A DNA stretch of 64,000 bases from Cyanidioschyzon merolae (taxonomy: Eukaryota), in assembly GCA_000091205.1 (NCBI GenBank), contig AP006501.2; one strand, 5' to 3'. The notes beneath the pieces are model-generated. The model saw only the letters and a list, made by a program, of their open reading frames with translations. It had not been told where the DNA came from and did not search any database. Position 1 is the first letter of the stretch. Each line of letters opens with the position of its first letter. This document shows positions 37,635-64,000 of the stretch, piece by piece. The position numbers were made by a program, and so were the translations under genes.

Positions 37635-40600
37635 CTACGGGTCAAAGCCCAGGGCCTTGCGATATGCAGCCTCCTCGCGCCAGGTGAGGCGATCACGGAC
37701 CCAGTCGCCGCTGGAAGTGCGACGTCGATATCTCGGACGATTTGTCCCGCCGCCGAAGATATCGACCAGGTCGCAGGTATGGACGCGGGGAAATATGGTG
37801 TCTGGATCGACACGCGTTTGCTCGATTAATGCTCCATAGAGACGATGGCTCCGCGCCCATTCCGGTATGAGGTGCCGCTTAGCAGCGGGCACCGCAGCGC
37901 TCTCATCATCCGAGGCATCCGCCGAGTGGTGTCGCTCCGGAGTCAGCGGGTACTCCGCGGGAGCCTCGTCCGCGGCGGCAGCAGCAGCAGCAGCAGCAGC
38001 GGCAGCAGCTATCTGGGACGCTGGCTTTGTCCCATGCGACTTGAGCAGACCACTCGCTACGACCTGTTGTTGACGGAGCGGCGCAAGACGTGCCTGCTGG
38101 CGCTCGGTCTCCAGTGCGAGCCTTCTTTGATGCTCCAAAATGCGGCGTCGTTTCTCCTCGCGCCGTTGGCGGTATGCGTCCTGGACATCGAGGGGCGCCT
38201 CTGCATCCACGGGAGCTTGCCTTGGAGATGGATTCCCGTTGAGATCGACCAGGGGCTTCACTGCTGTGCGCGAAGGCGTCGCTGAGACAGGCGTAAGCGA
38301 CGTCGTGTCCACTGCTGTGGGTTGTTTCAGCGAAGCTGGGACGCAGTTCGGCGAGGCGCGCTGATCCATCCGACTCTTGAGCGTCTCGGGGCTGGGCGAA
38401 GCCCCGCGCACGCGCTTGCTCGATTGAGGCATTGTGGCTATGACGATCCGGTAACGAGACGGGCTGCTCCTTGCGTGCCCCAGCGTTGCCCATGCTTTGT
38501 TTGGTGACGGTTTCAGCACCGAATTTGTGCCGGTGGCTTGCAGCTCAGTGGCGTTCTGCAGCGGTTCTACTTGCATGCGCGCTGGTGAATGCGTCTGACG
38601 AGTGGAAACCGCTCCAGCGGAAATTGTAGCGGATGCGGTGGCGACGGCAGCGTTCCCCGGCAGACCATAGCCGCTGACATCCTGCTCCAGCGGAGGCGAT
38701 GGCGCAGCTCTCGACGTGGAGCGCCCGGTGCGATGGCGATCCTCGCACATTTCGTGCTGGACCGTCGAGCTTCGGTCGCCGGCAGCTCCCACAGCTTCGA
38801 TCCGACTGGGACTGGGGCACACCGGGAGCGCTCCAGCACGCATCGCGCGCAACCGCTCGATGCGCGTGCGCAGGGCCTCGGTTCTCGAGAGCCTGCTAGA
38901 AACACCGCCAGGAGCACCGCCAGGTCCCGGCTGGCGCTCACCACCAGGCGCAGCTGCAGCGTAGAGGGTATGGTGCGGCATGGGCGTTCCACTGGCGTGC
39001 GCTGGTGGCATGATCGTTTCGTCTACCGCTGCGGGAGCGCGCTTCGGGTCTGCAAGTCGCAGTGCGTGAGCGTCGTAGCCGTCGTATGCGACGCTGGTTG
39101 ACGCTGCCGGCGCCCTACGAACGGAAAGCAGCATCTCCGTCGCAGTTTGCGAGCGCTCGAGCGCATGGAACGACCCGTCTATCGCGTTCGTGGCGTCAGA
39201 TGGACTGCGCGATCGTGAGCGTCTCGCTTGCTGGTCACTTGCACCAGCTGCACTCAATGGCGAGCGAGGACGGCTGGGCCTCGCTAGTTTGGCGTTGGCA
39301 GTCGTCGCCTGGCCGGAATCCGGTACCAGCGACGCTGCCGCTGCCGCTGCCGCTGCTGATGGCGCTAGTTCGACCGGCGCCGCGCAGCTCGGCATCGCTA
39401 CCGAACTGGAGTCGCTCGCCACAGCGGGTTGCTGTGCCGCGTCCGCCGCGCAGTCCGGGTTCCCGACTCGCCCATTCGCTGCATCCTGGCCACATGACCC
39501 AGCTCGGATCGCATCCGCGTTTTCCGCAAGTGCGCCGTTGTCGTCGCTCGGTACTGTGGCCAATTTTGGGTCGCATTCGAGCGTCTGTTCCAGTTGGAAA
39601 ATCTGGCCTTCAATGTCGGTCGCATTCACGAACGAGCCGGGGCCGGATGCGGTTGGCGAAGCGCAGCGCGCGCGATAAACCTGTTCTGGGCTCGCAACCG
39701 AGTCGATTGGCGCCATCGCGAACGCGGCAACTGGCCGATGCGCTGGCGCAGGTGACGCGGACCCACGGCCCGGGTGCATTGTATGCCGCCCGGGGCTCAG
39801 TGAAGCCGAACGCTCGCGTGTACCCTTCATCTGCGCTTGAGATGCCGTCACGCCCTCCATTGTGTAGGCGCTGTTCTCGGGCAGAGCGCTGGACGTGCCC
39901 AGCTGGCGCATCGCCGCCGACGCTTGCGCATCAACAGCCGAAGCTTCCGTGGTAGCATTGCCACTGGCACTCAGGGCATGCTGCGCTCGCGCGAAGGTTG
40001 GCAGCGGCAATGGCGTTATCGGCGCGACAGCTCCTCGATGCACAGACGATCGGCGTCGTGCCCGAACCGTCTCTGTGGCATTCTCCGTGGAAAACGATTC
40101 AGCATGGTCGCTCGGGTGGCATTCGGCGGCGAAGTCGCTGCAGGTGACGCTGCCGGCACGCTGGGCGCCATTCGTCAAGGCCATCATTGTGCGGATCGCC
40201 TCTGGCGCCGCAACCTTTTGGGGTTCGTTGTATTCGAGCTGTGCGCTGTTCCGCTCTGGATCCACTAACGACCGCCGCATTGGCGGTGATTGCGAAAGCA
40301 TTGCGGAGCTACGTCGATTCGGTGCTGTTCGATGCACCGGAGACGATAGATGCGATGCCGGGGTACGCAGTGAGCGCTCCTTGGTCTGGGAGCACGCTGC
40401 CGGTGTTCGGGGCAGGGCCTCATCGCCCGCTTCGGCAGCGTTCATCCGCGGCGAATGCCCTGAAGCGTTATCAAAAGCTGGGCGCGTTGCGAGAGACCCT
40501 GGAGTATGCCACTCGTTGCCAGCAGGGGCCTGTAGCGAAGCCTGAACACCCCTGATGGTCTCTGTGGCAACGTCTTGGCCGGGATTTGTCACAGTGCAAT

Positions 40601-43600
40601 GTGTGCGACTGTTCGCATCGATAGTGACTGATGCGCGCGACATCATCTGGCTCGGCGACATGGTGCCTGACCCTGAGCGATGCTTACGAATCGAGTCAGA
40701 TGGCACATTAGCCGCAAAGCGCGTCTCCTGCAAAGACGCTGCACGGCGTCTGCTGGACATCGATGGCGATACACCGGTTTTTGGTGTCGGCGCTGGCGAC
40801 GCCCTTATCGACATTCGTTGCCATCGCGCTCTATCTGCGATATTCTCGGTGACGTTTTGGAGGCTGGACCGCGGAGCTGCACCACCCCCAGACGCTGCTC
40901 TGGATTCGGCTGGGATTTCGCAACTGCTCGCCACGGTCCCGGTGACTTGCTCGAGCGATGACCTCACTCCTGGACACCGTTCACCCACATCTGGTGCCAT
41001 TCCATCGACGTCGTTCTCGGATGGGGCGTGTTGCGGACTAAAGCGCAGCGCGGCAGGCAACTGACCCTGAATGCACCAAGAGAGAGGGTTCAGTGGTGAA
41101 TCAGCAGCGCTGGGCGATGGCGACTGCGCTGCTGCAGGCTGTTCAGCGGCAGGTGCGGGCATCGATTCGCAGCGAAACGCAGATGACGGATCAGTAGCCA
41201 GAGGTATGCTCGCGGCCTCCGTGCGCATAGCTGTGTCCTCGTCCGCGATGCCATTATCATGCGGTTGTCGCGGTGATGGCGGCGAGACGTCCCCGAGCAC
41301 CAACGAGCGCGTCGGAAGATGCTTGGGGCAGGGACTGCATGCCTCGACTGCTGCCCCGCTGGATGGAATATCGCCGCGCGGCGGCGTCCATTGCCTGTGA
41401 TGCATATCGCTTGGCGGCGTTTCCGACACTGCTGCAGCTTTTTGCGATACGAACGATGATCCGTGAACAGCTAGCCTGGCGCTTTCGACCCGAGGCGTCG
41501 TTGGCGTCGTACTGGGCCCAGGCAGGCGCAGCGCATCGGCCGCTGCGGCTCCAGAGGGATCCACAGATGTCGATTCCGCGGGCGCGAAATTTTCGCCTTG
41601 CGGGTCGCTCAGGGCCGCGGGCGAAGCTGCCAATGCTGCAGCTGGACAAGCACTGGATGTCCCTGAGCCATGTACGGGGTCTGAAGCGGCCTCCGCAGGG
41701 TCCTGCTTCACCAAAGCCGCCGCCGCCGCCGCCGCCGCCAAATCGATACGGGCTTGGCTCGTCGACGGTCGACGTTCTGGATGCGACTCTGAATGTGCAG
41801 CAGATGTCGAGGCCGGGTGATGCACATCGTACCGCGGCGAAGGCAGCGCTTTGCTGGCACTCCCTGCAGCCGATGCCGAATCGTCGGCTTGCGCGGACGT
41901 CCAGTTTGAATGAATCTCTCCAGCAGTGGACGGCTCTATGGGCACCGGCTCCTGCTCGGTTGCTGCTTGCTTCTGATGTATTCCAGCTGACGCATGGGGC
42001 GCATCCGCCGCTCCGTTTCGTGTTCGAATGATGCACGGGCTCGTGAACGAAACGTTGTGCGCATCGCGAATTTGCACTCGAGTCTGAAGCCCTGGCAGGG
42101 CTCCATTGAGACTTTCCGATATTGCCACCGGAAGCGAGGGACGCGATCGATTGCATAGGCGGGCGCTTTTTTCAGGCAGCGAAGCGCTTCGCCTGTTATT
42201 CGCGCCTCGGCCCTGATCCGGTGATATGGTGTCTGGAGCCCTCGATGTTGCGCGCCGAGCACCATGCATCGACTGCTGCCGCTCCGCTCGTTTCGACGAC
42301 GCTGTTCTTGGCGATGCCATGCCTCTGGATACCGGCGGTAGGGACGTGTTCTGCAGAGCGTCTTGGGGACGGCGCCGACGCCGTCGTGTTCGGGTCGGCA
42401 TTCGCTCGGGACTAGCGGGCGCTAGGCGCTTGATTACCGACGACTCCCGCGCTGCTTTGTCCGCACCAGAGCGTGACCTGGACGGCGGCGCCTGCCGTTG
42501 ACGGCGTCTCGGCATTGGCGCTCGCGGTGCTCGTCGCGTTTGCTCTGGAGTGCTCTGGCCCAGCGATATGTTCGTCATGGGCGTCATTCTGCTCGTGTTG
42601 GGTTGGTCGACAGCTGCGCTCAGGTTAGGAGCGCTTGGCGCGCACTTTTCGCAGAACCAATCCTTCTGGGGCACCTGGTCCAGCGGCGGCCTACAGCAGT
42701 ACGTGTGGAAACAGTCATCGCATCGATCACATAGAAGCATCAGATGGGGGTCCTCCATGCCCTTGCATCGTCGGCAGTACGTCTCGTCCTTGTGCGGGGT
42801 TCGATTCTCCGCCTTGGCCCGTGAGAACGGCGACAGTAGCTCTAGGGCCAATGCCCGCGCACGATCTGCAGTGCTTTGCTGATGCCGTCGAGCAGTCGCA
42901 CGGGGTGCTCGTGTGGCGAGGTCGTTCGCGTGCGTCTCAGACGATGGCGCTACTCGAGCCAGACCAGAATCTCGCCGTTTTTTCGGTCGCAACGGTACAG
43001 CGGATGCACCTGAGTCTGCCTCTGCTCCATCAGCGGCACATGTGGAAGAGGGTCGTGAGAAGCGCGCGCTTCCAACGCGCTGCACGGGCGACGCGCGGGC
43101 ACCATGTAAGGCCGGTGCTGCTGCATTTAGCACCGCATCGCGCTTAGGTGAAACGGGTTGCGCTTCCTGCTCAGATGCGTGCTGTGGCGGAGCACGCTTT
43201 CGTTGCACGCGTGACCTTTTGGTGGCTTGCGAGGTGCGACCGGCTGTCTCTCTCGTTGATCGCCCGCAGGCGATACTGAGCGCATCCGTTTCCGCTGGTG
43301 CTGCCCTTTCGGCTGCCTGTATCGAGGGTGACCGGTGAGAGCGGCGGTCTTGGCGCTGTGCGCGCTCTCTTATGCCTCGTCGCTGGTTCGTTTGACGCTG
43401 CCCTGCGTTGGAGGCAGGCGATCCAAGCGGCGACTCTGGCGGTGCAGGTGTGCGCTGCTGTTCTCGGGTGCCAGCGTAACGCTCCGATGGAATGTTGGGG
43501 CGCTCGTCTTGCATGAGCTGTTGATCATTGTTCTCGTCGTGGAACGCGAACTGATCGGATTCTGCTGCAGCGGCACGTTCCAACGATGACGACGACGGCA

Positions 43601-44336
43601 GTGGCGACTGGGCGCCAGACCTGATCGGGTCTGGCTCTTTTCGTGGCGCGTTCAGTACGACCGGTATCTGGGAATTTTGTCTAGAGTCATTGGTTTTGCG
43701 CTCGTGTAGTGCAGTGAGACGACGGCGTCGGCGCGCGCGAGCGTCCAGCATCATGCTCTTTCGCGATGCCGCGGGCGGCCGCACAAGGCCTACGAGCGAA
43801 TGCCGCGGGTCCCAGGTCTTCCATCCCTGGCCGGGTGGCCTCGTGCCCGGTGCGACTGACTCGCACATGCTTGAGATGCTGTGGCTTTCAGCACGACGGA
43901 AGAGCGAGCCGTGTGAGCTGGTGTCTCGACAATCGTCGGACGGAGCAGCAATTGAGGGTGTTTCGCGACTTGGACCTCGACAGCCATCGGATGATTCACT
44001 TGCTGGCAAATGATATGACGCCGCTACCTTGAAGCGTTGCGGTTCTGCTGGCGATGCAGCGGCACTGGCGACGTTGTTCGTGTCGGGCATTGTGGTGTTC
44101 CCCAGCGAGTCAATGGCGTGATCAAGCGCGCTTCTTGCCGCCGCCGCCGCCGCCTCGTGACTGCTAGTCGGAATCTCTGGCAACCTTGTCGCACACGCGC
44201 GAATCGTCCGTTGGAACCGAACGATTTGTGCTTCATATTCGCCCAGTAGAACAGCCTGCTGTTGCTCTGCAATGTAGTGGAGCGCATGAATGGCGTCCAA
44301 AACTGTCCGCTTTCGAAAAGCGTCGCGCGTAGACAT
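37635..44336 (-). CDS. INCENP: Giant (2233 aa) INCENP-like chromosomal-passenger protein with an internal PHD finger and a C-terminal IN-box. Mostly disordered, Ala/Ser/Pro/Arg-rich
   Basis: C-terminus IPEWARSHRLYGALIEQTRVDPDTIFPRVHTCDLVDIFGGGTNRPRYRRRTSSGDWV matches the INCENP IN-box that binds Aurora B (human: IPSWA...VDVDQVFG...[21 protein letters not shown]). It is preceded by a charged single-alpha-helix stretch (RQRREEKRRRILEHQRRLALETERQQARL). PHD finger C4HC3 at aa ~521-566: CRRCKGMEDPHLMLLCDRCDDCFHTYCCRPPLDQVPQKDWFCEKC. Confidence 0.75.
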   Translation of the reverse strand: MSTRDAFRKRTVLDAIHALHYIAEQQQAVLLGEYEAQIVRFQRTIRACATRLPEIPTSSHEAAAAAARSALDHAIDSLGNTTMPDTNNVASAAASPAEPQRFKVAASYHLPASESSDGCRGPSRETPSIAAPSDDCRDTSSHGSLFRRAESHSISSMCESVAPGTRPPGQGWKTWDPRHSLVGLVRPPAASRKSMMLDARARRRRRLTALHERKTNDSRQNSQIPVVLNAPRKEPDPIRSGAQSPLPSSSSLERAAAAESDQFAFHDENNDQQLMQDERPNIPSERYAGTREQQRTPAPPESPLGSPASNAGQRQTNQRRGIRERAQRQDRRSHRSPSIQAAERAAPAETDALSIACGRSTRETAGRTSQATKRSRVQRKRAPPQHASEQEAQPVSPKRDAVLNAAAPALHGARASPVQRVGSARFSRPSSTCAADGAEADSGASAVPLRPKKRRDSGLARVAPSSETHANDLATRAPRATARRHQQSTADRARALALELLSPFSRAKAENRTPHKDETYCRRCKGMEDPHLMLLCDRCDDCFHTYCCRPPLDQVPQKDWFCEKCAPSAPNLSAAVDQPNTSRMTPMTNISLGQSTPEQTRRAPRAPMPRRRQRQAPPSRSRSGADKAARESSVIKRLAPASPERMPTRTRRRRRRPQDALQNTSLPPVSRGMASPRTASSKRAERQQSMHGARRATSRAPDTISPDQGRGANNRRSASLPEKSARLCNRSRPSLPVAISESLNGALPGLQTRVQIRDAHNVSFTSPCIIRTRNGAADAPHASAGIHQKQAATEQEPVPIEPSTAGEIHSNWTSAQADDSASAAGSASKALPSPRYDVHHPASTSAAHSESHPERRPSTSQARIDLAAAAAAAALVKQDPAEAASDPVHGSGTSSACPAAALAASPAALSDPQGENFAPAESTSVDPSGAAAADALRLPGPSTTPTTPRVESARLAVHGSSFVSQKAAAVSETPPSDMHHRQWTPPRGDIPSSGAAVEACSPCPKHLPTRSLVLGDVSPPSPRQPHDNGIADEDTAMRTEAASIPLATDPSSAFRCESMPAPAAEQPAAAQSPSPSAADSPLNPLSWCIQGQLPAALRFSPQHAPSENDVDGMAPDVGERCPGVRSSLEQVTGTVASSCEIPAESRAASGGGAAPRSSLQNVTENIADRARWQRMSIRASPAPTPKTGVSPSMSSRRRAASLQETRFAANVPSDSIRKHRSGSGTMSPSQMMSRASVTIDANSRTHCTVTNPGQDVATETIRGVQASLQAPAGNEWHTPGSLATRPAFDNASGHSPRMNAAEAGDEALPRTPAACSQTKERSLRTPASHLSSPVHRTAPNRRSSAMLSQSPPMRRSLVDPERNSAQLEYNEPQKVAAPEAIRTMMALTNGAQRAGSVTCSDFAAECHPSDHAESFSTENATETVRARRRSSVHRGAVAPITPLPLPTFARAQHALSASGNATTEASAVDAQASAAMRQLGTSSALPENSAYTMEGVTASQAQMKGTRERSASLSPGRHTMHPGRGSASPAPAHRPVAAFAMAPIDSVASPEQVYRARCASPTASGPGSFVNATDIEGQIFQLEQTLECDPKLATVPSDDNGALAENADAIRAGSCGQDAANGRVGNPDCAADAAQQPAVASDSSSVAMPSCAAPVELAPSAAAAAAAASLVPDSGQATTANAKLARPSRPRSPLSAAGASDQQARRSRSRSPSDATNAIDGSFHALERSQTATEMLLSVRRAPAASTSVAYDGYDAHALRLADPKRAPAAVDETIMPPAHASGTPMPHHTLYAAAAPGGERQPGPGGAPGGVSSRLSRTEALRTRIERLRAMRAGALPVCPSPSRIEAVGAAGDRSSTVQHEMCEDRHRTGRSTSRAAPSPPLEQDVSGYGLPGNAAVATASATISAGAVSTRQTHSPARMQVEPLQNATELQATGTNSVLKPSPNKAWATLGHARSSPSRYRIVIATMPQSSKRVRGASPSPETLKSRMDQRASPNCVPASLKQPTAVDTTSLTPVSATPSRTAVKPLVDLNGNPSPRQAPVDAEAPLDVQDAYRQRREEKRRRILEHQRRLALETERQQARLAPLRQQQVVASGLLKSHGTKPASQIAAAAAAAAAAAAADEAPAEYPLTPERHHSADASDDESAAVPAAKRHLIPEWARSHRLYGALIEQTRVDPDTIFPRVHTCDLVDIFGGGTNRPRYRRRTSSGDWVRDRLTWREEAAYRKALGFDP
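37638..37880 (-). other. IN-box (Aurora-kinase-binding) module at the extreme C-terminus of the INCENP-like ORF
   Basis: RPRYRRRTSSGDW with upstream DIFGG and IPEWA motifs, in the canonical order and spacing. Confidence 0.75.
42640..42778 (-). other. PHD zinc-finger module inside the INCENP-like ORF
   Basis: Cys4-His-Cys3 spacing read directly from the minus-strand translation. Confidence 0.8.
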
Positions 44337-46733
44337 TGGCGCTCACAACTCGAAAGCCCACTAGCGTCCTCTTGTACCGCGTAAAAGGTATGTTTCTCCT
44401 GGTCGAAAGCCGGTTGCTTGGACAAGTTCGAAGCACGTCACTCCGAGGCGGCGCCACGGTACTGCTGCCAAGTCCCGATAGCACAGCGAGGTCGAGCGGT
44501 GCTGAAACGACACGCAGCGGCGACGTGCAAACGCGCGGCCTTACACAACTGTCTTGTTCGCTCCCGTGCCCTGATGACTCGGCACACAAAGCTGCCTCTG
44601 ATGTCTGCTGCCCGTTCACGTTACGCTCGTGCTCGGCGAGCAGCGCGATCCCAGGTCGCAGCGTCGAACAGTCCCGGAGCGCAGCGATACGCCCACACGT
44701 GGCGTTGGAAGCGCCGGCTCTCCTGGAGTTTAGCAGGCGGTAAAACAGGGCGATAACGCCCCGGATCAAAGAAGGGCTCTGTCTGGTGCAGATAAACTCG
44801 ACAGGCCCGTTCAGTGGGGGGAGAAGAGCTCGACGCACGCGCTCGATGCCGTCCGAGCGCGGAACGTGGCTCGCCTTCTCGGTGCAGGGACACACTGGGT
44901 GCCGCAGCCGGCAGCGCGAGGCGGCCGTCTCCCACGATGATGCGATCGCGTCGGGAATTCAAATCGACGGATGCGAGGTTCAGGAGAGGGTCTGGTTTAT
45001 TCATTTATGTTCGCTTATGTCTAGTATGCTCCCAGTGATGCGAGGCAGCCGTGGTGGTACGCGTTCAGCGTGGCTGCGTGATCCACGGAGCGCGGGCCGA
45101 TATTTCTGATGACGAAACGATAACCATTGACCATGGATCCCAGAATTCGGGATGGATGGATGTATAATGGCTCTTGAAAAAGTGTCCATGATGAACCACC
45201 TACCTTCAAGTTCCAATAGCTATACTTCCTCTCGGATTTACTGGTCGTTTCGTATGTTCTATCGAGCGCCGAGTGCCTGCTGTGGGCACCCGCCGAAGCG
45301 CTTCCACCGCTGCAGCAGATGCTGCACGGCGACAGAACAGCTTTGCCATACCACTGAGAGCGTCGGCTCGAGACGTGGTTCATTCGATACGGGGCCGGAG
45401 TACATAGTAATTCTGGGAGCCTGCGACAGCGCGAACCGATCTACCAGGAGTCCACTGCGACCAGTGCGATGCCCAGATGCAGCTTTCCTGCGTCTAGTCC
45501 CAGAATGAACTGCTTTGCGAACGAGCTGCGCGGGTCTCTCCACAGCACCTGCCACTGGAGGGAGCATGAAGCACTCGTCTTGCAGACTCGTCCGGCTCGC
45601 GGACCTTCCGCTTAGGAGATTCACGTTCGGCAATGTAGAAAGCTTTCCATTCTTATAACGTTTATCGTAGCGCGACCCGATGTCGTTGGTGGTACTGGCG
45701 CTGCCAAGCCCCGGAGTCCCGACTGCTGCCCCGGTATTTTCGGGACGACGGGGATCGATATTCAAGGAGCATCTGCAGTGTGATCATGATTTTGAACAGC
45801 GAGCCTGGCAAGGCCGCTTTCGAAGTGCCCCCAGCCGCTGCACCGTGGCACGGCTCGCGAATCGGCCGCTCCAGACGTTGCCTCTGGAGGTTGCGTTGAA
45901 TAAAAAACCGCAGTTCCTGTCCAATATCCTGAGAAAATCAGGATTATCACGAATCGCATGTATGGTTGCGTACAGAGGCGCTTGACGCAGTGTTCGGCGA
46001 CTGCTCCTGCGTCGTCGTGGACCTAAGAAGCGACGTTCGCAGCGCCTACCGCCGCGACTAGTATGGATACGCATCCGGCAGAGCGATGAATCCCTCGTAT
46101 ACGGGTAATCGCCAGCCAGCGGCCGGGATCCAATCATTACGATGCTTTTGCAGTCGACTCCTGTGGGCGCTCCCAGGGTTCGCATGCACTGTGTATCGTG
46201 CACATGCCCCGGTGCTGATGAGCGCTGGAGATGCCAGCAACTGGCAGCGTCCATGCATGCAAGGCATTCTGATCAGATTCAAGTATTTTTGGAAGATGTG
46301 CGGTTGCGGAATCGAACGGGGGATCTGCAGGTGCGCGATCTTTATCGGCATCGAGGGAGGCATCTATCATGCAGCAGTAGCGCAGAGTTTCATGGATCAC
46401 CACCTAGGCTTCCACTCGAAAAACATAGTCCATTCATACAAGCTTGTAGGTGCCGAGCCGACGATGAGTGCGTATAAAGACGCCAGTAGCACCGTTCAGG
46501 ACACTGCACGGAAGCGGAAGGGTTTTGGCGTTCCCGCGCTGGTGCGTCATCTCAAAGAGATGCGCGGATCCTATGTTGTAAACGTGACTGTGCAAGTATC
46601 GCAGCAGTTTAGGCCAGCAAACGGAACGACACGCGCGACTTTCGAGCATTTACACCCATACCAGATAAGAATGGTATGGGTAGATTCAATTCACAAGGGC
46701 ATCTACGCTAGAGTCCGGTCTCCAAGCATTGTC

Positions 46734-48024
46734 ATGAACACCAGGCTGTGCGGGATTTTTCTCCAACTGACTCTTTTTCCTCTTTCTCGTATCCGGCATG
46801 AAACACGCTGGTCACGGTTTCGCTCCAGCGCCGTTGTAGGCATGCAAACGATGTTGATGGCAGCGTGCAAGTCCCGATTTCGCCGATGCCGGCTCTCGTT
46901 CAAGCATTTCATTCGCACTCAACAATACCGCAAGCAACAGATCCTCTTTGTGTACCGTGTAGACGCGCAGCTCGCACCGGTGTCACTCGACTGTGGTCAG
47001 GTGTTCCTGGAGGTCCGTCGCAGCGCCTCATGCTTCGAGCGCTGCACACGCGCCGGACCAGTGCAGAGGCCTCGCTTCGATGCCGTCCTCCGGTTCCGCG
47101 CCCGGTGCCGTACCCTGCGATCATGGGCTTCTTCTGGGTAAGACCTTCGGCGAGGACTCTGTCTGATGCATGCGCACGGGCACGCTGATCCCGTCGATAA
47201 CGTTTGCGTCGGACGCGATGTTGCTCATGATGAAACAAGCACTGAAATGGAAATCGACGCTCGAGGATACGTCGACGACTTTTGCGCTGTCTACGCCGCC
47301 TCCATGTTGGGCGCTGACGCATGCTCCTTTGTGAGCGATCGCTGCGATGACTCGATTCCGATCCCAAGGCTCTCGCCGATGCAACCAGAAGCGTCGAGCG
47401 TTTCTGTGGGCGCATCCCGTGACAACTGTGATGCTGCTGTCGGAGGCCTTTTCGATGAAGGCCACAAAGAAAGAGGCACTTGCGTATCGAACGGAATCGA
47501 TGTGTTGAGGAGGCGAGCTCCGCGAACGCTCGGCAACAGCTCGTCATACAGTCGCTTACGGACGACGGCAGTTCTTTTGTGTCGTCGTCACCATCATCGT
47601 CGTCGTCGTCGTCGTCGTCATACCAGCAGCGCAAATCGCAGTGTCCATGAGTTGCTTTGAGGTACGCGCACCGCATTGCTGCAGAAAGCGTGATTTGACC
47701 AGAGCAACCGTTAGGAAACGAAAAGAGTGAACGCGTGTGCGAATACATTGGATCCTGGTATCGATTGCTTTACGGTGCCCTGCTCGAAGGTGCCGTATGT
47801 TGTTTTCATGACGATGACGGAAGGAATTTCAGCACCAAGGATTCGGAAAAGCACACCCCGAGAAGACGCCCCAGAGTCTTAAACCTGCGTCTGTATCCGT
47901 GAGCCCGTATGGCTGCGCTGCGAATATCGAGGATTGTGATGTAAAAAAGTTCGATGAAAACATCAAGGCAGGAGCAGAGCGCGCACTTCAGTGTTCCCTA
48001 CAACCCTTATACGAGTGCAGGCCT
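46734..48024. repeat. Copy B of the 1.3-kb dispersed duplicate (see 33068..34362)
   Basis: Near-identical sequence. The (GTC)n run is one unit shorter than in copy A (D9 versus D10). Confidence 0.85.
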
Positions 48025-48585
48025 GCGTTACAAAGCACCCTTGCATCACGCAACGGAAAGGATATGGAGTATCCACTAGTTAAAGGCTCTTTTAGCGATC
48101 TTGAGAAGAATGTTTTCACTGATGTAAAAGCTCGGTTACGGTAAGGCATTTTCTATCAATTTGACGAGCTATTGGAATATCTGCAGCTGAAAAGGGAAAC
48201 ACGCTGAAATCCGGCATGCAAGACCGCGTTTCCAAAATCGTTAGCTATGATACAGGATGAGAAATCCTCACAATCAATGATGACAACTACCCTCTGCACT
48301 CATCGACATACCAAGGGACTGTCACGAATTGAGTGAGCCTATGGGAGTCGCGGACAGGCCTGCTCGGCCTGGTCCGGGTCATATTCACGTGCTTTCAGAA
48401 ATATGTTACGAGCTGGTGCCAACACGTATCCAGGCAAAGCTCCAAGCGCATGAGCAATATCTCACGAAAGCGCGGGGCACCTGGATGTCGGTAAGGTCGC
48501 GCCCTGCACGCCCCGGTCATGCACTGACGATTTTGCCGTTCACGGGCGTTCTCGCATGCAGACCAAGTCAACAAAACAGGAGCAC

Positions 48586-49536
48586 TTAGCTATGATCAGT
48601 CGGTACGATGCCCTCTACCGATACAGGTTTTCCGTCGCAGGTGGCGGCTTCGGCGGTCCGCTCTCGCTCACAGGACGCAAGCTCGCTCTTGCGTACGAAA
48701 CGGCCCTTGTAACGCGGTCGAGCCTCTGCTAGCTCTTTGCGGCAAACGTAGCGAACAGTTTTCCAACATTTCCGTTGCCGTTTCTTCTCACGATACCGGA
48801 TGTACGCTCGGTAACGATGTTCTCGAGCAGTCCATGGGCCGCCCACACGACTACTGCTGTCCACTCTGGGTACCAAGGACCGAGCCTGCTCGCTGCCGTC
48901 CGCAACGTCTCCGCTGCCGTGACATGGTCGACCGTTCTCAGCCGAAAAACATGAGATCGATGCAGCCGTGTAACTTCGACGTGACTCGCCGTCCGAGGCA
49001 CCTGAATCTAAAGGCGCCGAACTGAACGAACGGTCCCCTTCAACGACGCCGGCTACAGCGGAGCTCACGAGCTCGTCAAGCAACGGCGAAGTTGGCGCTA
49101 GCCAAGGCACTTGCTCGAGACTGAGCGGCGAGAAGCCCCTGCGGTCCATTCCACTTCCTTCAGGTTGCGCGTCGTCGGCACGTACCTGCGAGCGCGGAGA
49201 TCCCTCGACGCTGACGAGGCTCGCGTAGCTACCGGCTGTCGGACGCGCAGCTGCGCGTTCCAGTGCATGACTCTGAGAAGTTAGTCCTTGTGAGGGTTTC
49301 TGGTTGGCTCCGGGTCCACTGGACTCATGCAACACAGGCCCAGCGGTGCCCTGGTTGTCTCCGGGCAAAAAAAGCGACTCCAGGTCCGCCCAGTCAAAGT
49401 TTCCGGTGTCAACACGTGGTGTGAGGAAGTCGTCGAACCCCGTAGGCGTTATCCACATGTTACCCCAGTGATCGTGCTTGCGTTCGGTACCAGGAAGCAG
49501 CACTTGCGTTCTCCCGTAGTGAGCAGGGCGTTGCAC
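48586..49536 (-). CDS. CCT-motif (CONSTANS/CO-like/TOC1-type) protein, 316-aa ORF. The CCT motif is near the C-terminus and the rest is disordered
   Basis: REHRYRAYIRYREKKRQRKCWKTVRYVCRKELAEARPRYKGRFVRK is a near-consensus CCT motif (consensus [37 protein letters not shown]). Nothing else in the ORF is recognisable. Confidence 0.7.
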   Translation of the reverse strand: MQRPAHYGRTQVLLPGTERKHDHWGNMWITPTGFDDFLTPRVDTGNFDWADLESLFLPGDNQGTAGPVLHESSGPGANQKPSQGLTSQSHALERAAARPTAGSYASLVSVEGSPRSQVRADDAQPEGSGMDRRGFSPLSLEQVPWLAPTSPLLDELVSSAVAGVVEGDRSFSSAPLDSGASDGESRRSYTAASISCFSAENGRPCHGSGDVADGSEQARSLVPRVDSSSRVGGPWTAREHRYRAYIRYREKKRQRKCWKTVRYVCRKELAEARPRYKGRFVRKSELASCERERTAEAATCDGKPVSVEGIVPTDHS

Positions 49537-50984
49537 AGTGTACCAGCGCCTGCCGCTACGTCAGAGGCCTCCAGACGCGTTGACCCCTGGGCCGCGTGCT
49601 GCTGCGCAGCAGGTTGCGCAGGGGCGTGTGTCGCGATGTCACGGAAGCGATCCGAGGAGTCACATTCGCGTTGAATCTGGCTGTTGAGCGACGTTGTACA
49701 TAAGGGACACAGCGTCGTCCGCACGCAAGCAGGCGTATCGAGCGCAGCGGAATTAATTTTACGCCCCGATGGGCGTTCAGTGCCAGCTCTTTGAAGAACA
49801 CGGTATGAAACTGAACTTTTTTGTCCTGATCCTGGTGACAGTCCTCTGGTACACGATTCATCTGAAAAACGGTATCATCATGCACATTCTTGGTCGTGAT
49901 CCTGGGCGCAGTCGCCCGGTCTACGATCCTATTTGATACAGTGCTGCCAGCAGCGGTCTTTGGTCTGCCATCCGACTCGTCGAAACGCACGCCGGGCCGA
50001 CGTATCAAGATCGTCCGGTGATATCGCTGCTGGTGCAGTCATGGTGCATGCATCCGCGCGTACTGGTCGGCATAGGAGGTTCGGTCGCTGCGTCTCTGAC
50101 GTTTACGGACGAATATAGGTCAAGTGGTGATTCGAAGAATCTTCTGGCGGAAAACACGTGCCTTCAACGGGACGTCTCTCGATGTGGGTTACCTTTGTGC
50201 GAAGCTATTCGTATGGATGCTGTTCTTCGCCAATCCTTGTGCAAGGAATCTGCGCTTATCGTGCAACGATGCAAGGACGGTTCGCGACCTGTATGTGCGG
50301 ATTTCGTCCACAGACGCTTGCACGCTGAACCACATCAATGGAAACTGCGGTTGCGACAAATGTGCACCAACTGAGCCGCGTGGTGCTCATGGTCAGGCCC
50401 CTGGAACCCTGGACGATCAAGATGATCCTATTTGGTGACAGGTTGATATCCAGCGCATCTCTTTGCGCGAGAATGACTTGGTGGCACTTGCATGAGGCAC
50501 GCTAAACGTAATCGTTCGCGGGAATCCAGTCAGTTGGACGTGCTGAATTTCGAAGCAGGACACTATGCAAAACGAAGCAAGTTCAGGTGTTCGGTTGTAG
50601 ATCAGGACGACACACGAAACATGGGTGCTGCATCGCACACGTATCTACTCTGTGGCAGCCTTGGACAAGAGTCGCCATTGGTTTAGCGTGATTGCTAGAG
50701 AGCGCTTGGATTACCAGGATGCCGTAGCCGGCATTCGTTGCTCCATCGAAGGTACACGGCTGGATTTCGCCAAGGCATTTTGCGGAGGCTGCGCTCCCGG
50801 CTCTTGACCCGCGAGCAGCGAAATGAAACAGCGAAACCGGTGATAATGGCCTGTTTGAGACCTGTGTAACAGACGCTGCTGGGAGCAACGCGGCAAGGCG
50901 GCCTCCTGCAAAATTCAAGCACCGATTCTGGTTGTGCGTCGAAGAGCTGACGAAGAAGTTTCTATGTATTCTTTGCGCACATGA

Positions 50985-51645
50985 AGCATACGGCATCCAC
51001 AGGGAAGGAGACCAAGGCTCAGATACACGAAAAGCATCGCATAGTGTACCCATAATGCATACCGTTTAGAAAATAGAGGAGATCAAGGCTCAGGTGCACG
51101 AAAAGCATCGCATAGTGTACCCATAAAGCATACCGTATAGAAAATAGAGGAGATCAAGGCTCAGGTGCACGAAAAGCATTGCATAGTGTACCCATAAAGC
51201 ATACCGTATAGAAAATAGAGGAGACCAAGGCTCAGGTGCACGAAAAGCATTGCATAGTGTACCCATAAAGCATACCGTATAGAAAATAGAGGAGATCAAG
51301 GCTCAGGTGCACGAAAAGCATTGCATAGTGTACTCATAAAGCATACCGTTTAGAAAATAGAGGAGATCAAGGCTCAGGTGCACGAAAAGCATCGCATAGT
51401 GTACCCATAAAGCATACCGTATAGAAAATAGAGGAGACCAAGGCTCAGGTGCACGAAAAGCATCGCATAGTGTACCCATAAAGCATACCGTATAGAAAAT
51501 AGAGGAGATCAAGGCTCAGGTGCACGAAAAGCATCGCATAGTGTACCCATAAAGCATACCGTATAGAAAATAGAGGAGATCAAGGCTCAGGTGCACGAAA
51601 AGCATCGCATAGTGTACCCATAAAGCATACCGTTTAGAAAATAGA
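50985..51645. repeat. Tandem minisatellite, 71-bp unit, about 9 copies. Ends ~230 bp upstream of the ADCK kinase start codon
   Basis: Unit gcatagtgtacccataaagcataccgtatagaaaatagaggagatcaaggctcaggtgcacgaaaagcatc. Period measured from recurring gcatagtgta at 51110, 51181 and 51252. Copies abut directly with no spacers. Confidence 0.9.
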
Positions 51646-51873
51646 GCATAGAGGCGATCGCGCTGCCTCCCGAATGGCAGCGTTACGCCCGGCGATGAGC
51701 CTCATGTTCTTATGAGTGCTGATCCAGGATTGCCGAGGAACCTCCTCCTGAGCCAACACCGGCGTTTGCACTACTTGCCCTTGTACGTCTGAAAACGGAT
51801 GGGCTGCTGAATTGCACATGAAGGTAGCATTTCTCAAAATCTGTAGGATAGCTAGGACGTTTGTGGCTGTTTT

Positions 51874-53778
51874 GTGGGCAACACTGCCTCGAACGCCTGC
51901 ATGACTGCAAGCTTACTCTCTCCGGGTATACGCAGGCTTGCGTACTTCGTTTCCGTCGGAGCGCCCTTGATTACTGGTTACTTGTGGGCAGACTCTCGGA
52001 AAAAGGCCTACGGCGAGGCGAGCGTGACAAGTCATCGGTTGGAACCGTCGTACGATACCTCTGTGTTCGGAGCGTATCGCAGGTTCGCGCGCTCTGCGAT
52101 AACGGCGGCAGCGATCGTTGCCGACTATAAGCTCACGCTGGCGCGACTGCCCCCGGAAAATGAACATGACGAATTTGCTGTAACGTTGCGCGGGGAGAAA
52201 CTGGAGGCGACGCATCGGCGTGCCGCTGCAAAGATTCTCGAGCTCTGCGAGCGCAACGGTGGCATCTACATCAAGCTGGGCCAACATCTCGCGCAGATGG
52301 ATTACCTGCTTCCTGACGCTTATTGTGAGGCGCTCAGGCCACTGCTGAACGCCTGTCCGATACAGGAGTTTGCCGTGGTTGAACGGACACTATGCGAGGA
52401 CCTGCAGGTGGAGCGCCTGTCGGAGGTGTTCTCGTTCATTGAACCTACACCCGTTGCTTCAGCGAGTCTTGCGCAGGTGCATCGCGCTCGCTTGCGCACC
52501 GATTACAGGGAGCAGACGCAGCGGATGCTCTCTCCAAGAGAGCGAGCCTGGCTCGAGGAGCAGGAGCGCCTCGCACCCGAGGGGCCACTCGTCGCCGTCA
52601 AGGTGCAACATCGCGGTCTAGCGGAAGCGCTCCAGGGCGATATCGCTACGGTGCAGTTTCTCGTAAGCGCAGCCGAGCGCCTTTTCCCGGGCAACTTTGA
52701 CATGCAGTGGCTGGTAAATGAGATTCGAGAGAATCTTCCAAAGGAGCTAGACTTTGAACACGAGCTTCAAAATGGGGAGCGCTGCCGCACATATCTCGCG
52801 AGCGGCTGTGGAGCCAAGGGCCAGCGTTGCGCTCGACCACGCCTGAACGTCCTTGTGCCAACGTTTTTGACGAGTTTGTCGACGCATCGAGTACTGACCA
52901 TGTCGTACGAGACGGGAGTCGTAGCCAACGATGTTGCGGGGATTCGGCATCTCGGCCTGCGACCGCGCGACGTCGCATCCATAATCGATGACGTGTTCAC
53001 AGACCAGATTTTTTGCTTCGGTTTCGTTCATAGCGATCCGCACCCGGGAAACATTCTAGTGCGACCGAGCCAGGAAGACGCTTCAAAACCGCTGGTGGTT
53101 CTGCTGGATCACGGCTTGTATCGCGAGCTGGACGATGCTTTCCGCTTAGCATACGCTGCGCTGTGGCAAGGCATCGTTGAGGGCGATGGCGCCAGCATTC
53201 GTCGGGAAGCCCTAAGGATGGGGGTGCCCCCAGAGGACGTCGAGCTGTTTACAGCCATGTTAACTATGCGTTCATGGCAAGATGTGGTGGACCAGACCGA
53301 ACAACGAGGCGATCGCGGGCTACGTCTCTCCAATGAGCGGACGTCTGCGAACAAGCGGCGCGTGCAGGACTATGTGCGAGCCCATATCATGGCGATGAAT
53401 CGTCTGCTTGGTCGCATTCCAAGGCCCTTGCTGCTGTTACTAAAAACGAATGACTGTTTACGAGCGCTCGATCGTCGCCTCGGTGCGACGTCCCTCATGG
53501 TGGAGATGATTGCGCGAAAGACGACCGCAATACTCGCGGAGCACCAGCACACACAGTGGATGGAGCCGTTGCACGCGCAGCGGCACCAAGGGCTTGTCCG
53601 CGGCCCCATGTATTCGTTCTGGGAGCGAATACGACTATCGTGGCGCAGGGTACGTCTGGAGCTGCGTCTACTCATGTTTCGCTTGCTGGTGTGGTGGCAC
53701 CAATTGCGCAGGTCAGGAGATGCGCTTCTGCAGCGCTTCCAGGCCACGTTCCGCTCAAAAAGCCCGGATATACGCTGA
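51874..53778 (+). CDS. ABC1/ADCK (aarF-domain-containing) atypical protein kinase, 634 aa, complete
   Basis: ADCK-family motifs ASASLAQVHRARL (ATP-binding Lys region), VAVKVQHRGL, HSDPHPGNILVR (catalytic loop) and DHGLYREL (DFG equivalent). Confidence 0.9.
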   Translation: MGNTASNACMTASLLSPGIRRLAYFVSVGAPLITGYLWADSRKKAYGEASVTSHRLEPSYDTSVFGAYRRFARSAITAAAIVADYKLTLARLPPENEHDEFAVTLRGEKLEATHRRAAAKILELCERNGGIYIKLGQHLAQMDYLLPDAYCEALRPLLNACPIQEFAVVERTLCEDLQVERLSEVFSFIEPTPVASASLAQVHRARLRTDYREQTQRMLSPRERAWLEEQERLAPEGPLVAVKVQHRGLAEALQGDIATVQFLVSAAERLFPGNFDMQWLVNEIRENLPKELDFEHELQNGERCRTYLASGCGAKGQRCARPRLNVLVPTFLTSLSTHRVLTMSYETGVVANDVAGIRHLGLRPRDVASIIDDVFTDQIFCFGFVHSDPHPGNILVRPSQEDASKPLVVLLDHGLYRELDDAFRLAYAALWQGIVEGDGASIRREALRMGVPPEDVELFTAMLTMRSWQDVVDQTEQRGDRGLRLSNERTSANKRRVQDYVRAHIMAMNRLLGRIPRPLLLLLKTNDCLRALDRRLGATSLMVEMIARKTTAILAEHQHTQWMEPLHAQRHQGLVRGPMYSFWERIRLSWRRVRLELRLLMFRLLVWWHQLRRSGDALLQRFQATFRSKSPDIR

Positions 53779-59040: not shown

Positions 59041-60504
59041 GTGTACAAACTGGTAACTGGTATGTTTGTAGGGCCTAGCGGTGCGTTCGCTCCAGGAGTT
59101 CCCGGAGAGCGCTTGAGGCGGCAACGCCTGCGACCTGAAAAGCTACTTGGCTGTGAGCGACGGTATCGAGAGGGCTTTGCCACGTTCGAGCTTCCAACAG
59201 CAAATGCGTTCTACAGAGCCGCGTCGAAGCCAGTTCGCGACCTTGGCGTACTTGCCGCACTGGTCTGGAGCGAGGCAATAGGTGAACGTCTTCGAATAGC
59301 CGACCTCCTCGCTGGACCAAGTGCGGTGCGCGCCCTGCGCTATGCCACAGAGACTAACGCGAGAGCGGTGCTGGTGAACGATGCAATATCGGGGCCCGGT
59401 CGAACAGTGCTTGAGAGGAACACCACGGGAGTCAGCGAAGATACGGTGTGGATTCGTCGTCACGATAACCTTTTCGAACTCGCGCAAAGCGAGGAATGGA
59501 TTCACTCCTTCGACCTCATTGATCTTGATGCTTTCGGCACCGGTGCTGATGAAGTCGCCAGTGGTGTCCTGAATATGCTTCGCTGTCGGCGAATGAAGAC
59601 CGCATGGAGCGGAAACGACGACTCCGCGGCTGAGAAGGATGCAACTGCTGGAGCGCTCTTATACTGCTGCTCGACTGCATCGGTGACTGCAGCGGGTCTG
59701 AACCCCGGTAAGGCACAAAAGACGTATGGAGCGGCACTGGTGCGTCATGCGGCAGTCCATGAACAGGGTTTACGACTCCTGATCACTGTCGTTCGGAAAC
59801 ACGCCCAACAAAGCGGATTCATAGCGCAACCGTTGTTCTCATACTTCCATCGTGCTGGTGGGACGTTTCGCGTCATGTTCCGCATCCTGCAACCAAGGCA
59901 CGATGAGCTGGCGTTAGCGTCGACCGCAGCTGCGGATACAGGGCTCCTGCATCTTTGTCAGCAATGTGGGCAGCTCTGGTGTGTAACATCAACGATCAAG
60001 GATGCAGTAGCGAGCTCCGTCTGCCCGGGCTGTGGCAACGACGCCGCTGCACCACAGGTACGCACGAGTGGACCCTTCTACATGGGACCTCTTCACGACG
60101 GTGATTTCGTGGAGCGTATGCTTACCGTCAGTCGTGAAGCACCGGCCGGTCACTTCGATCGGGCAGCGATTGCAGCTCTCAAGCTCATGATTCATGAGAC
60201 GAGACTCAATGCGCATCCGTTTTATTACCGCGTGGGTGATCTAGCTCGACGAGCTCGCCGTTCTCCGCCGCCGATTTCGAAACTCATAGAGCGTCTTCAA
60301 TGGTACGAGCGTACCTATCGTGAAACCAGGCGCATGCCCGAAGCAGTTGTTCGGGCCCAGTGGCAGGCTGCTCGCGCCTCCGTGGACCCCCAAGGCGTTC
60401 GTACCGGTTTGCCGATACCGGCGATTCTCTCGGCCGTAGCGGAGGCGAGTGCCTTCCGACAGCAGCAGCAGCAGCAGCAGCAGCGTTCTCGGGCTTTGCT
60501 TTGA
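59041..60504 (+). CDS. TRM1: tRNA (guanine26-N2)-dimethyltransferase TRM1, 487 aa, ending in a poly-Gln run
   Basis: FYRAASKPVRDLGV (N-terminal TRM1 motif FYNPVQEFNRDLS), DLIDLDAFGTGA (SAM-binding), C-terminal Cys-rich zinc finger CQQCGQLWC...CPGCG, and the conserved LH(D/E)..F motif. (CAG)8 at 60462..60485. Confidence 0.85.
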   Translation: MYKLVTGMFVGPSGAFAPGVPGERLRRQRLRPEKLLGCERRYREGFATFELPTANAFYRAASKPVRDLGVLAALVWSEAIGERLRIADLLAGPSAVRALRYATETNARAVLVNDAISGPGRTVLERNTTGVSEDTVWIRRHDNLFELAQSEEWIHSFDLIDLDAFGTGADEVASGVLNMLRCRRMKTAWSGNDDSAAEKDATAGALLYCCSTASVTAAGLNPGKAQKTYGAALVRHAAVHEQGLRLLITVVRKHAQQSGFIAQPLFSYFHRAGGTFRVMFRILQPRHDELALASTAAADTGLLHLCQQCGQLWCVTSTIKDAVASSVCPGCGNDAAAPQVRTSGPFYMGPLHDGDFVERMLTVSREAPAGHFDRAAIAALKLMIHETRLNAHPFYYRVGDLARRARRSPPPISKLIERLQWYERTYRETRRMPEAVVRAQWQAARASVDPQGVRTGLPIPAILSAVAEASAFRQQQQQQQQRSRALL

Positions 60505-61716: not shown

Positions 61717-63344
61717 ATGTGCCAGTACCGCAGTAATGGAGCAGCATCGCAACTGGTGTTGACATCAACACCTCCCGGTGCCATTTCATGACAAAATGGA
61801 ATGAGTCTGATCAGGTAAGTCGCTCGAGAGCAGACGGTAAAGTCTGGGTACCTTTTCAGTATGATCGATACCTGCTTCCGCCGGCTATCTCTGCAGCTTG
61901 TGCGTTTTGCGCGCTCTGTGCTCCATCTTTCCTCATGCCGAGTGCTGCCGCTACCTCAACTCTATTGTCAACAGGCGAAGCATGGTGATGCCCACATGAA
62001 ATTCCCATTTTCGCAGCTATGGACTGCTATTCACGCATTTCATGCACAGGTGAAAGTTGCCATGCACACGTCGCCTGCCAAATTCATCTTCTCTGTCGAT
62101 CGAGTCGATGCACCCTTTGCGGCCATGATCCTTGCCTGCGATCAAGTGCGCTCCTGTGTCCGACGCACATGCTTCACCAAGGGCCGCTCTGTTGCACAAG
62201 AGCGCTCGCTTCACTGCTCGTTACGTGCACATGGTGGGTACGTAGCGCGCGACTCCATGTCGTGCTCGGGTTCCATATCCGGTGACGCACGCTACGATGA
62301 CGGGCATCTTCAGCGGAATCCCACGGCGAGCGGTTCTTCTCTGTTGCACACGCAAGCGAACGCTATTCCATTCGAAAGGGCGTTTGTAGAACGCGATCAT
62401 GGCCATGATAAAATAGGTTCCGGAAGGAAGACTCGGGCTCGAGAACAAGTCGCGCGTGCGCAATCCATCGACGCTCCGCCGGTGCGAAGCGGTAAATGAA
62501 CGGATGTATTCCGGAGGTGATCTCTGTGTGGTGACTCGAGTCCGACTCCAAGCCTCATTCCCATACATACAGAAGAGACGGCATCCTCTGGGCGCAAATC
62601 CTGTGACAGGTACGATGCGACTGCGGAACGCGCCTTCGACGTCAACCAGAAAGAGCGGAACATGCTTCTATCGAAGCAAATCGATTACTTGAGGAGACGC
62701 GTTGCGTGCACTTTCGGCATGAGCTTCTCTACGCACTGTCATAGGGTGGTATCGGGTTTTCTGTTGTTTCATCGTCGTTCCAGCGTCGCGAATCGCTTCG
62801 CTGTCGAGTAGCCTTGAACCGGAAAGATCGAACACGTGCAGCAGGCGTGATTTGAGGACGCTCGGCCTAGGGACAAGAGACGAGTGAAGGCCTCTACGTA
62901 TGCACCGCATCATGATATCGGTTATTTTAGGATCCGTTGTTGCGTAGTGTCGCGAAGCATCTTGGTTCGCGGGACGTCATCAGGATCATCGGCAAAGCGT
63001 CGAAGGTACCGCTCCGAAATGACGACCGAGCTAGAAGCCCTAAAAGCTACGTATGCACCCGTGAGCCTTCGCTGCTATATTTTGAATGTCAGGGCGGAAT
63101 ACCTATGAAAAGTTCCGGATATATTGACGGGGAGAAATACAGCGAGCTGTTCTATTGCTCATTTCCATGTAACTCGTGTGGATGCAATACGAGTCACCAA
63201 CAACCGTTGCGCCTAGAACGGTCTTGGAACTGTTGCGCGCGGCTACAGTCCAGCGCAGCTACTCAGCTACCGCGAACGTTACGCTTGGCACGTATCGAGG
63301 CGAGTGATGCAGTCAACTTCGCCCTGTAGATAAAAGGAAAGGAT

Positions 63345-64000
63345 ATGGAGAGAGCGCGTAACACGTCAAAGGGCAAAAGAACGGCGTCGGGGTCGATGCC
63401 AGCGGCAAGCTCACTGGATCCCGCTTACGCCGTCATTCTCCCGACGTACAACGAACGGGAAAACTTGCCGTTTGTAGTTGAGTTGATACACCAAGCGTTC
63501 TCAAGCGTTAGTCTTGCGGATCGCTATCACCTTGTCATCGTGGACGACAACTCACCGGACGGCACGCTACAAGTTGCCCGGGCGCTGCAAAAGCTCTACG
63601 GGGAAGAGCGTCTGACGCTTGCCCCACGCAGCGGCAAACTCGGCCTAGGGACAGCGTATCGTCACGGACTACAAAGAGCACCGACGGCTTGCAGCAGGAT
63701 ATTTTTGTTCGACGCGGACCTTTCCCATAATCCACTCGCAATACCCGCCTTCATAGCGTGCATGGATAAGACCCAGGCGGATATCGTGACCGGTACGCGC
63801 TACCTGGGCACCGGTGGCGTCTGCGGCTGGGGCTGGAAGCGGAAAATCACCTCGAGCGCAGCGAACCTGCTCACGCAGTGGCTCTTGGACCCCGGTGTTA
63901 GCGATGTGACTGGAAGCTTTCGCCTTTATCGTCGCGAGGCATTGGAGCAACTCCTGGAGGCGGTGCACTCGCGAGGCTATGTGTTTCAAATGGAGGCCAT
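63345..64000 (+). CDS. DPM1: Dolichol-phosphate mannosyltransferase catalytic subunit (DPM1, GT2 family), 5' part. The ORF runs off the 3' edge of the window
   Basis: Manual translation from the ATG at 63345: AYAVILPTYNERENLP, IVDDNSPDGT, RSGKLGLGTAY, FLFDADLSHNP, GTRYLGTGGVCGWGWKRK, LTGSFRLYRREALEQLL, GYVFQME. This is the DPM1 motif set in the correct order. It is not in the ORF track because no stop occurs inside the window. Confidence 0.85.
   Translation, partial: MERARNTSKGKRTASGSMPAASSLDPAYAVILPTYNERENLPFVVELIHQAFSSVSLADRYHLVIVDDNSPDGTLQVARALQKLYGEERLTLAPRSGKLGLGTAYRHGLQRAPTACSRIFLFDADLSHNPLAIPAFIACMDKTQADIVTGTRYLGTGGVCGWGWKRKITSSAANLLTQWLLDPGVSDVTGSFRLYRREALEQLLEAVHSRGYVFQMEA

Follow-up and report, generated by a model that had tools for sequence, protein, structure and literature searches.

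A stand-alone CCT-domain protein encoded in a conserved nuclear locus of Cyanidioschyzon merolae, a red alga

The transcription regulator CONSTANS (CO) is multimerised by its B-box, and direct DNA binding has been reported for CCT domains of the TOC1/PRR type. The plant CCT domain is an NF-YA-like module, the first helix of which docks on the NF-YB/NF-YC dimer, with the second helix and the loop that follows it setting the DNA specificity for elements such as CORE and TGTG (PMC10203454; PMC6843132; PMC10706179). It also carries a bipartite nuclear localisation signal of the form RK-X11-R (PMC10706179). Nannochloropsis and diatoms possess CCT-only proteins, which have been discussed as possible clock candidates (PMC3499364; bioRxiv 10.1101/550954), and among the red algae at least two CCT-only entries are recorded for Galdieria and true B-box+CCT proteins for Chondrus and Gracilariopsis (PMC8304369). 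For C. merolae the TAPscan v3 counts (Petroll et al. 2021, PMC8304369 Table S6) refer to the Soos proteome, and comprise exactly one CCT protein, CmerSOOS_G3082.1 (labelled 'no family found'), one B-box-only protein, two receiver-only proteins, one NF-YA and three NF-YC-type histone-fold proteins, with counts of 0 for both NF-YB (CCAAT_HAP3) and CO-like proteins.

The window analysed here, i.e. the whole 64,000-nucleotide stretch of C. merolae DNA (contig AP006501.2), contains a mechanical ORF on the minus strand (48586..49536) that encodes 316 aa from a GTG start and includes the segment ...RYREKKRQRKCWKTVRYVCRKELAEARPRYKGRFVRK... within which a CCT motif had been noticed. As all orthologs and the RefSeq model begin with MW[I/M][T/S]P, translation most likely begins at the ATG at 49458, which would give a product of 290 aa rather than 316 aa; the resulting CDS of a CCT-only protein, 290 aa plus stop (48586..49458, minus strand), is supported by the ORF, the identity to RefSeq, the ortholog starts and synteny. 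The 290-aa protein is 100% identical to XP_005538819.1 / BAM82783.1 / UniProt M1VLW2 of C. merolae 10D, a plastid-bearing red alga of the Archaeplastida with recorded CCT proteins (PMC8304369 Table S6), and the lineage clue seen in the motif by the sequence-only reading thus proved sound. Judging by the listing, this gene presumably has its ortholog in CmerSOOS_G3082.1. In RefSeq/GenBank the product is called 'zinc-finger protein', a misnomer that was most likely carried over from CONSTANS-like best hits: Pfam recovered no zinc finger in the 316-aa ORF, and the protein has only 6 Cys and 5 His residues, which lack zinc-finger spacing. The Cyanidiococcus ortholog is named 'CCT domain-containing protein' in UniRef. 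A literature search returned no paper and no expression or functional report on the window protein, nor any on CCT function in the Cyanidiales; the gene is already recorded as an annotated gene with a domain hit, and no study of the protein was found.

Orthologs of 293 and 290 aa were recovered from Cyanidiococcus yangmingshanensis and from metagenome/Logan contigs; the multiple alignment gives them 56-57% identity with the window protein. The window and the orthologous loci share the gene order TRM1, MFS, TauE, ABC1, CCT and then INCENP/PHD. The CCT gene is real, nuclear and under purifying selection, and its synteny is conserved across Cyanidioschyzon and Cyanidiococcus. The description of the locus as GC-rich and intron-free also holds, in that GC content in the window is 50-65% and the ORFs are long and without introns, both of which are explained by nuclear DNA of a cyanidiophycean red alga. 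All four housekeeping neighbors that had been named were located in the window, namely UGPase (34810-36312, minus strand), ABC1/ADCK (51874-53778, plus strand), TRM1 (59041-60504, plus strand) and a DPM1-like GT2 gene that is cut by the 3' end of the window (about 63330-64000, plus strand; Glycos_transf_2, E=3e-28). The 5' end of the window similarly cuts an AP-endonuclease-like ORF (1 to about 1860, minus strand; Exo_endo_phos, E=1.5e-17).

Two adjacent giant ORFs of 2064 and 2356 aa (10655-16849 and 19138-26208, both minus strand) each start with a Na+/H+ exchanger domain, which is followed by more than 1500 aa in which no domain is recognised; tandem paralogy of the two seems likely. The ORF at 37635-44336 (minus strand) encodes a 2233-aa low-complexity protein that combines a PHD finger (aa 521-565) with a C-terminal INCENP Aurora-kinase-binding box, an architecture unusual for INCENP, with synteny conserved in Cyanidiococcus and the metagenomic relatives. 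Between this INCENP-like gene and the CCT gene lie about 4.2 kb (44337-48585) with mechanical ORFs only, none with a Pfam match and some with runs of poly-Asp or poly-Arg; in Cyanidiococcus the corresponding gap measures about 2.3 kb. A more distant CCT-only protein of 241 aa (P0004) is encoded on a 1.2-kb metagenome contig (L010; JGI 3300031521, Ga0311364_10548091). It has a very acidic N-terminus and shares an 'SPLSLE' motif with the C. merolae CCT protein, and a database search initiated with it returned only itself; its short contig was uninformative.

The CCT domain spans aa 215-260 (RYRAYIRYREKKRQRKCWKTVRYVCRKELAEARPRYKGRFVRKSEL; 48679..48816, minus strand), and its assignment draws on Pfam, PDB matches to Hd1 and CO, a shuffle test, pLDDT and dN/dS. 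The Pfam CCT model (PF06203) matches aa 218-257 (48688-48807, minus strand) with E=1.8e-11; its score of 44.3 bits clears the gathering cutoff of 28.4, and the only other Pfam-A hit in the ORF is a sub-threshold one to Cactin_mid; the orthologs score 50.8-62.5 bits with the CCT model. A sequence search of the entire PDB with the window protein recovered CCT chains only, with gap-free matches to rice Hd1 (7c9o_A, E=6e-10) and to the NF-YC/CONSTANS chimeras 7cvo and 7cvq (E about 8e-8). The motif is confirmed as a real CCT domain. The Hd1 and CO chains matched here were crystallised with NF-YB/NF-YC and DNA. Identity amounts to 26/46 with the Hd1 CCT, without gaps, and 22/44 with that of CO. The signature ...RY.EK...R....K..RY..RK..AE.RPR.KGRF... 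is complete in the window domain, the spacing between helix 1 and helix 2 is that of Hd1, and those helix-1 residues that dock on the histone fold in Hd1 and CO are conserved. The domain also displays an RK-X11-R pattern resembling a bipartite nuclear localisation signal (R240 K241 ... R253).

As a control for composition, the 46-residue segment was shuffled 200,000 times and identities to Hd1 were counted. The shuffled segments had 5.6 identities on average and 17 at most, with 0/200,000 reaching the observed 26, and 11/27 of the Hd1 positions that are neither Arg nor Lys are identical in the window domain. Hence the similarity is position-specific and not compositional. A purely compositional match in a lineage lacking CCT proteins had been named in advance as the case against the motif; what is found is a position-specific match in a lineage that has such proteins. 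Between Cyanidiococcus and the P0003 lineage the CCT region is almost invariant, with a dN/dS of about 0.014, with dS at 1.3-1.6 and hence near saturation. An AlphaFold2 model of the window protein, for which the input was a shallow alignment of 5 sequences, reaches confidence only around aa 211-250, with pLDDT above 90 only around aa 211-240. As this model consists mostly of disorder and one long helix, a Foldseek comparison of it against the PDB recovered no meaningful match (best E=3). A profile of the CCT domain alone, run against a set of 5.8 billion proteins, recovered only fragments of 53-100 aa, mostly unnamed, with no taxonomic resolution. Residue C239 (48742-48744, minus strand; …RY.CRK…) is a Cys that takes the place of a Thr in Hd1 and of a Ser in CO, and is invariant in the 5 aligned sequences, namely the window protein, its identical RefSeq copy, the two orthologs and the distant P0004.

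The remainder of the protein is, as had been proposed, largely disordered by prediction, with 208/290 residues below a pLDDT of 50. This predicted-disordered part is nevertheless not free to drift, since dN/dS across aa 1-204 is about 0.095 between Cyanidiococcus and the P0003 lineage (dS again 1.3-1.6, near saturation). Conservation outside the CCT domain is concentrated in four blocks, several of which contain invariant Ser-Pro or Thr-Pro sites. The first, an acidic/aromatic block at aa 1-30 (MWITPTGFDDFLTPRVDTGNFDWADLESLF; 49369..49458, minus strand), is identical at 17/30 positions in all three orthologs; of the first 35 residues of the protein, 7 are Asp/Glu, 1 is Lys/Arg and 13 are bulky and hydrophobic, and the block is a candidate acidic activation or interaction motif. 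The second, at aa 61-90 (…HALERAAARPTAGSYASLVSVEGSPRS; 49189..49278, minus strand), has 23/30 identical positions in the three orthologs and an invariant SP site, S87-P88. The third, at aa 111-140 (PLSLEQVPWLAPTSPLLDELVSSAVAGVVE; 49039..49128, minus strand), is the best-conserved stretch outside the CCT domain, with 26/30 positions, including 10/10 at aa 121-130, identical in the three orthologs; AlphaFold places a short helix at aa 125-135 with low confidence. The fourth, at aa 151-170 (DSGASDGESRRSYTAASISC; 48949..49008, minus strand), is identical at 16/20 positions in the three orthologs. An exhaustive search of 1.84 billion representative proteins with a profile of aa 1-205 recovered only the family itself and one 74-aa fragment, indicating that the N-terminal 205 residues are specific to the Cyanidioschyzon/Cyanidiococcus clade. 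As there is no homolog outside this clade, any role assigned to this region is pure inference.

Upstream of the gene, a conserved non-coding element of 34 nt, GTGAC[T/G]CCTCGGA[T/C]CGCTTCCGTGACATCGCGAC (49630..49663, minus strand), lies 172-205 nt before the start codon and occurs once in the window. At the equivalent position in Cyanidiococcus (L004) and in the metagenomic lineage (L001/L002) it is 94-97% identical, while its flanks are unalignable among those loci and synonymous sites are saturated. The element probably serves the CCT gene as a promoter or 5' cis-regulatory element. An RNA-structure role was rejected, as the predicted folds of the element were not significant (z-scores -0.8, -1.3 and +1.0). 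Among the metagenome matches to the element, only that on a C. merolae-like contig (L005) has the flanks and a CCT gene downstream; 4/5 of the matches to its 20-mer core are chance occurrences in unrelated high-GC contigs. For a 176-aa ORF that was called upstream in the orthologous loci, the window has no equivalent. Further upstream, where the CCT and ABC1/ADCK genes diverge, the intergenic DNA contains a tandem repeat with a 71-bp unit, in 9 copies with 97% matches (51006-51646; degenerate copies extend over about 50909-51776), which is present neither in the orthologous loci nor elsewhere in the window, and which yields spurious repeated 69-aa ORFs.

In terms of domain architecture the protein corresponds to the CMF (CCT-only) type, the CCT being its sole recognisable domain, as it is in the orthologs; CMF here names a class defined by architecture, as distinct from a proven clade. 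Pfam detected none of the B-box, receiver, GATA and TIFY domains in the 316-aa ORF, nor any of them in ten selected minus-strand ORFs of at least 50 aa from the 2.4-kb upstream region, in agreement with the earlier inspection by eye, which had seen neither a B-box nor a response regulator upstream. The protein therefore has neither the combination of one or two N-terminal B-box zinc fingers with a CCT that defines the CONSTANS-like/BBX (C2C2-CO-like) family, of which TAPscan counts 0 members in C. merolae, nor the N-terminal receiver-like domain plus CCT of PRR/TOC1, the two C. merolae Response_reg proteins being encoded by separate genes. Likewise, Pfam detects in it no TIFY plus GATA plus CCT arrangement of the ZIM / GATA-CCT (TIFY) type, and the CBFB_NFYA model (PF02045) that marks NF-YA/HAP2 does not match it even at E<=1.

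The reading favored here, to which a probability of roughly 0.55 may be given, is that the window protein is a stand-alone transcription regulator of the 'NF-CCT' type, with effector or regulatory motifs in its N-terminal blocks. By analogy with CONSTANS and Hd1, the first CCT helix would dock in an NF-YA-like manner onto a histone-fold dimer of the NF-YB/NF-YC type, and the second helix and the RPRxKGRF loop would contact DNA. The basic residues of the domain could double as a nuclear-import signal, and the acidic/aromatic N-terminus together with the conserved SP/TP blocks may supply activation, partner binding or phospho-regulation. The one NF-YA and three NF-YC-type proteins counted by TAPscan imply that candidate histone-fold partners exist in C. 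merolae, the histone-fold proteins being the 10D orthologs of CmerSOOS_G2319, G4123 and G930. Given that no NF-YB was detected in the same survey, either one of the three NF-YC-type proteins stands in for NF-YB or C. merolae has no canonical partner. Against the reading also counts that the protein has no B-box, through which CO multimerises. The DNA specificity is not transferable from plants, because C239 replaces the Thr of Hd1 and the Ser of CO.

The absence of NF-YB from the TAPscan counts also makes action independent of NF-Y the main rival. Here the CCT domain would bind DNA directly, or would serve as a nuclear-import or protein-interaction module, and the real function would reside in the clade-specific N-terminus. 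CO alone has been reported to bind CORE elements (PMC10203454), the RK-X11-R pattern resembles an import signal, and the N-terminal blocks are conserved with a dN/dS of about 0.095, all of which speak for this rival. However, the presence of NF-YA and three NF-YC-type proteins implies a working histone-fold platform, and helix 1 retains the residues through which Hd1 and CO dock, so that this rival is best regarded as a tentative second choice to the 'NF-CCT' reading.

The role as a light or clock regulator suggested by the sequence-only reading is a speculative extrapolation from the CO and PRR proteins of the green lineage, whose defining domains the window protein lacks, and finds no support in the present results. 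Not every stand-alone CCT protein of plants and stramenopiles acts in the clock or in the response to light. The idea is nonetheless a legitimate if speculative one, since the G1/S transition of C. merolae is clock-gated (PMC5897470) and PRR/TOC1 genes have been reported absent from the red alga Porphyridium purpureum as well as from a glaucophyte (PMC6374488). In its most extended form, which we consider doubtful, the CCT protein would be a component or direct output of a red-algal circadian/light system and would act in an NF-YA-like fashion on histone-fold dimers; the NF-CCT arrangement would then predate the split of red and green lineages, with B-box and receiver domains fused to it later.

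The remaining alternatives fare much worse. CCT and NF-YA have a related bipartite fold (PMC6843132; PMC10706179), and the protein could on that account be a divergent NF-YA (HAP2) subunit instead of a CCT protein; but it is the CCT model and not CBFB_NFYA that matches, the helix spacing is that of Hd1, and C. merolae has a separate NF-YA, making this very improbable. Slighter still are the prospects of a CONSTANS-like or PRR-like gene with a missed B-box or receiver exon, for which the RefSeq name might be adduced: neither these domains nor GATA or TIFY occur in the ORF or in the upstream ORFs, the few Cys and His residues have no zinc-finger spacing, the three orthologs share both the start and the CCT-only architecture, and in the TAPscan listing the C. 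merolae B-box and receiver domains belong to separate proteins. Finally, although the segment is very basic, the ideas of a chance match rich in Arg/Lys and of an ORF that does not code may be dismissed in view of the shuffles, the Pfam score above its cutoff and the syntenic orthologs under purifying selection.

C. merolae is haploid and nearly intron-free, with a very small genome that is amenable to homologous recombination. By survey it retains just one CCT domain, which is not fused to the partner domains of green plants (PMC8304369). Thus, if a histone-fold NF-Y partnership or a light/clock role were true, it would offer a very simple system for ancestral CCT function. The finding of the CCT domain in itself is correct but ordinary, and its practical yield is small.

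These observations can finally be set against the described CCT systems. [quoted passage not shown] Only about 45 residues are alignable between the two, too few for an assignment of orthology. The stramenopile proteins NoCCT-1/2/3 of Nannochloropsis and their diatom relatives are similarly stand-alone CCT proteins of non-green algae without B-box or receiver (PMC3499364, bioRxiv 10.1101/550954), but their flanks are unrelated to those of the window protein and their CCT domains have been reported to be closer to one another than to others (bioRxiv 10.1101/550954). The Galdieria sulphuraria proteins XP_005703076.1 and XP_005703374.1, which may be likened to the window protein by the TAPscan listing, are also cyanidiophycean and also classed as 'CCT, no family found' (PMC8304369). 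As for CONSTANS and Hd1 in the NF-CO complex (7cvo, 7cvq, 7c9o), the window protein differs from them in having no B-boxes, no VP motif and C239 in place of Ser/Thr, and in the lack of an NF-YB in C. merolae by TAPscan; yet its CCT domain is 48-57% identical to theirs and bears the same signature, and the mechanism is presumed to be the same.
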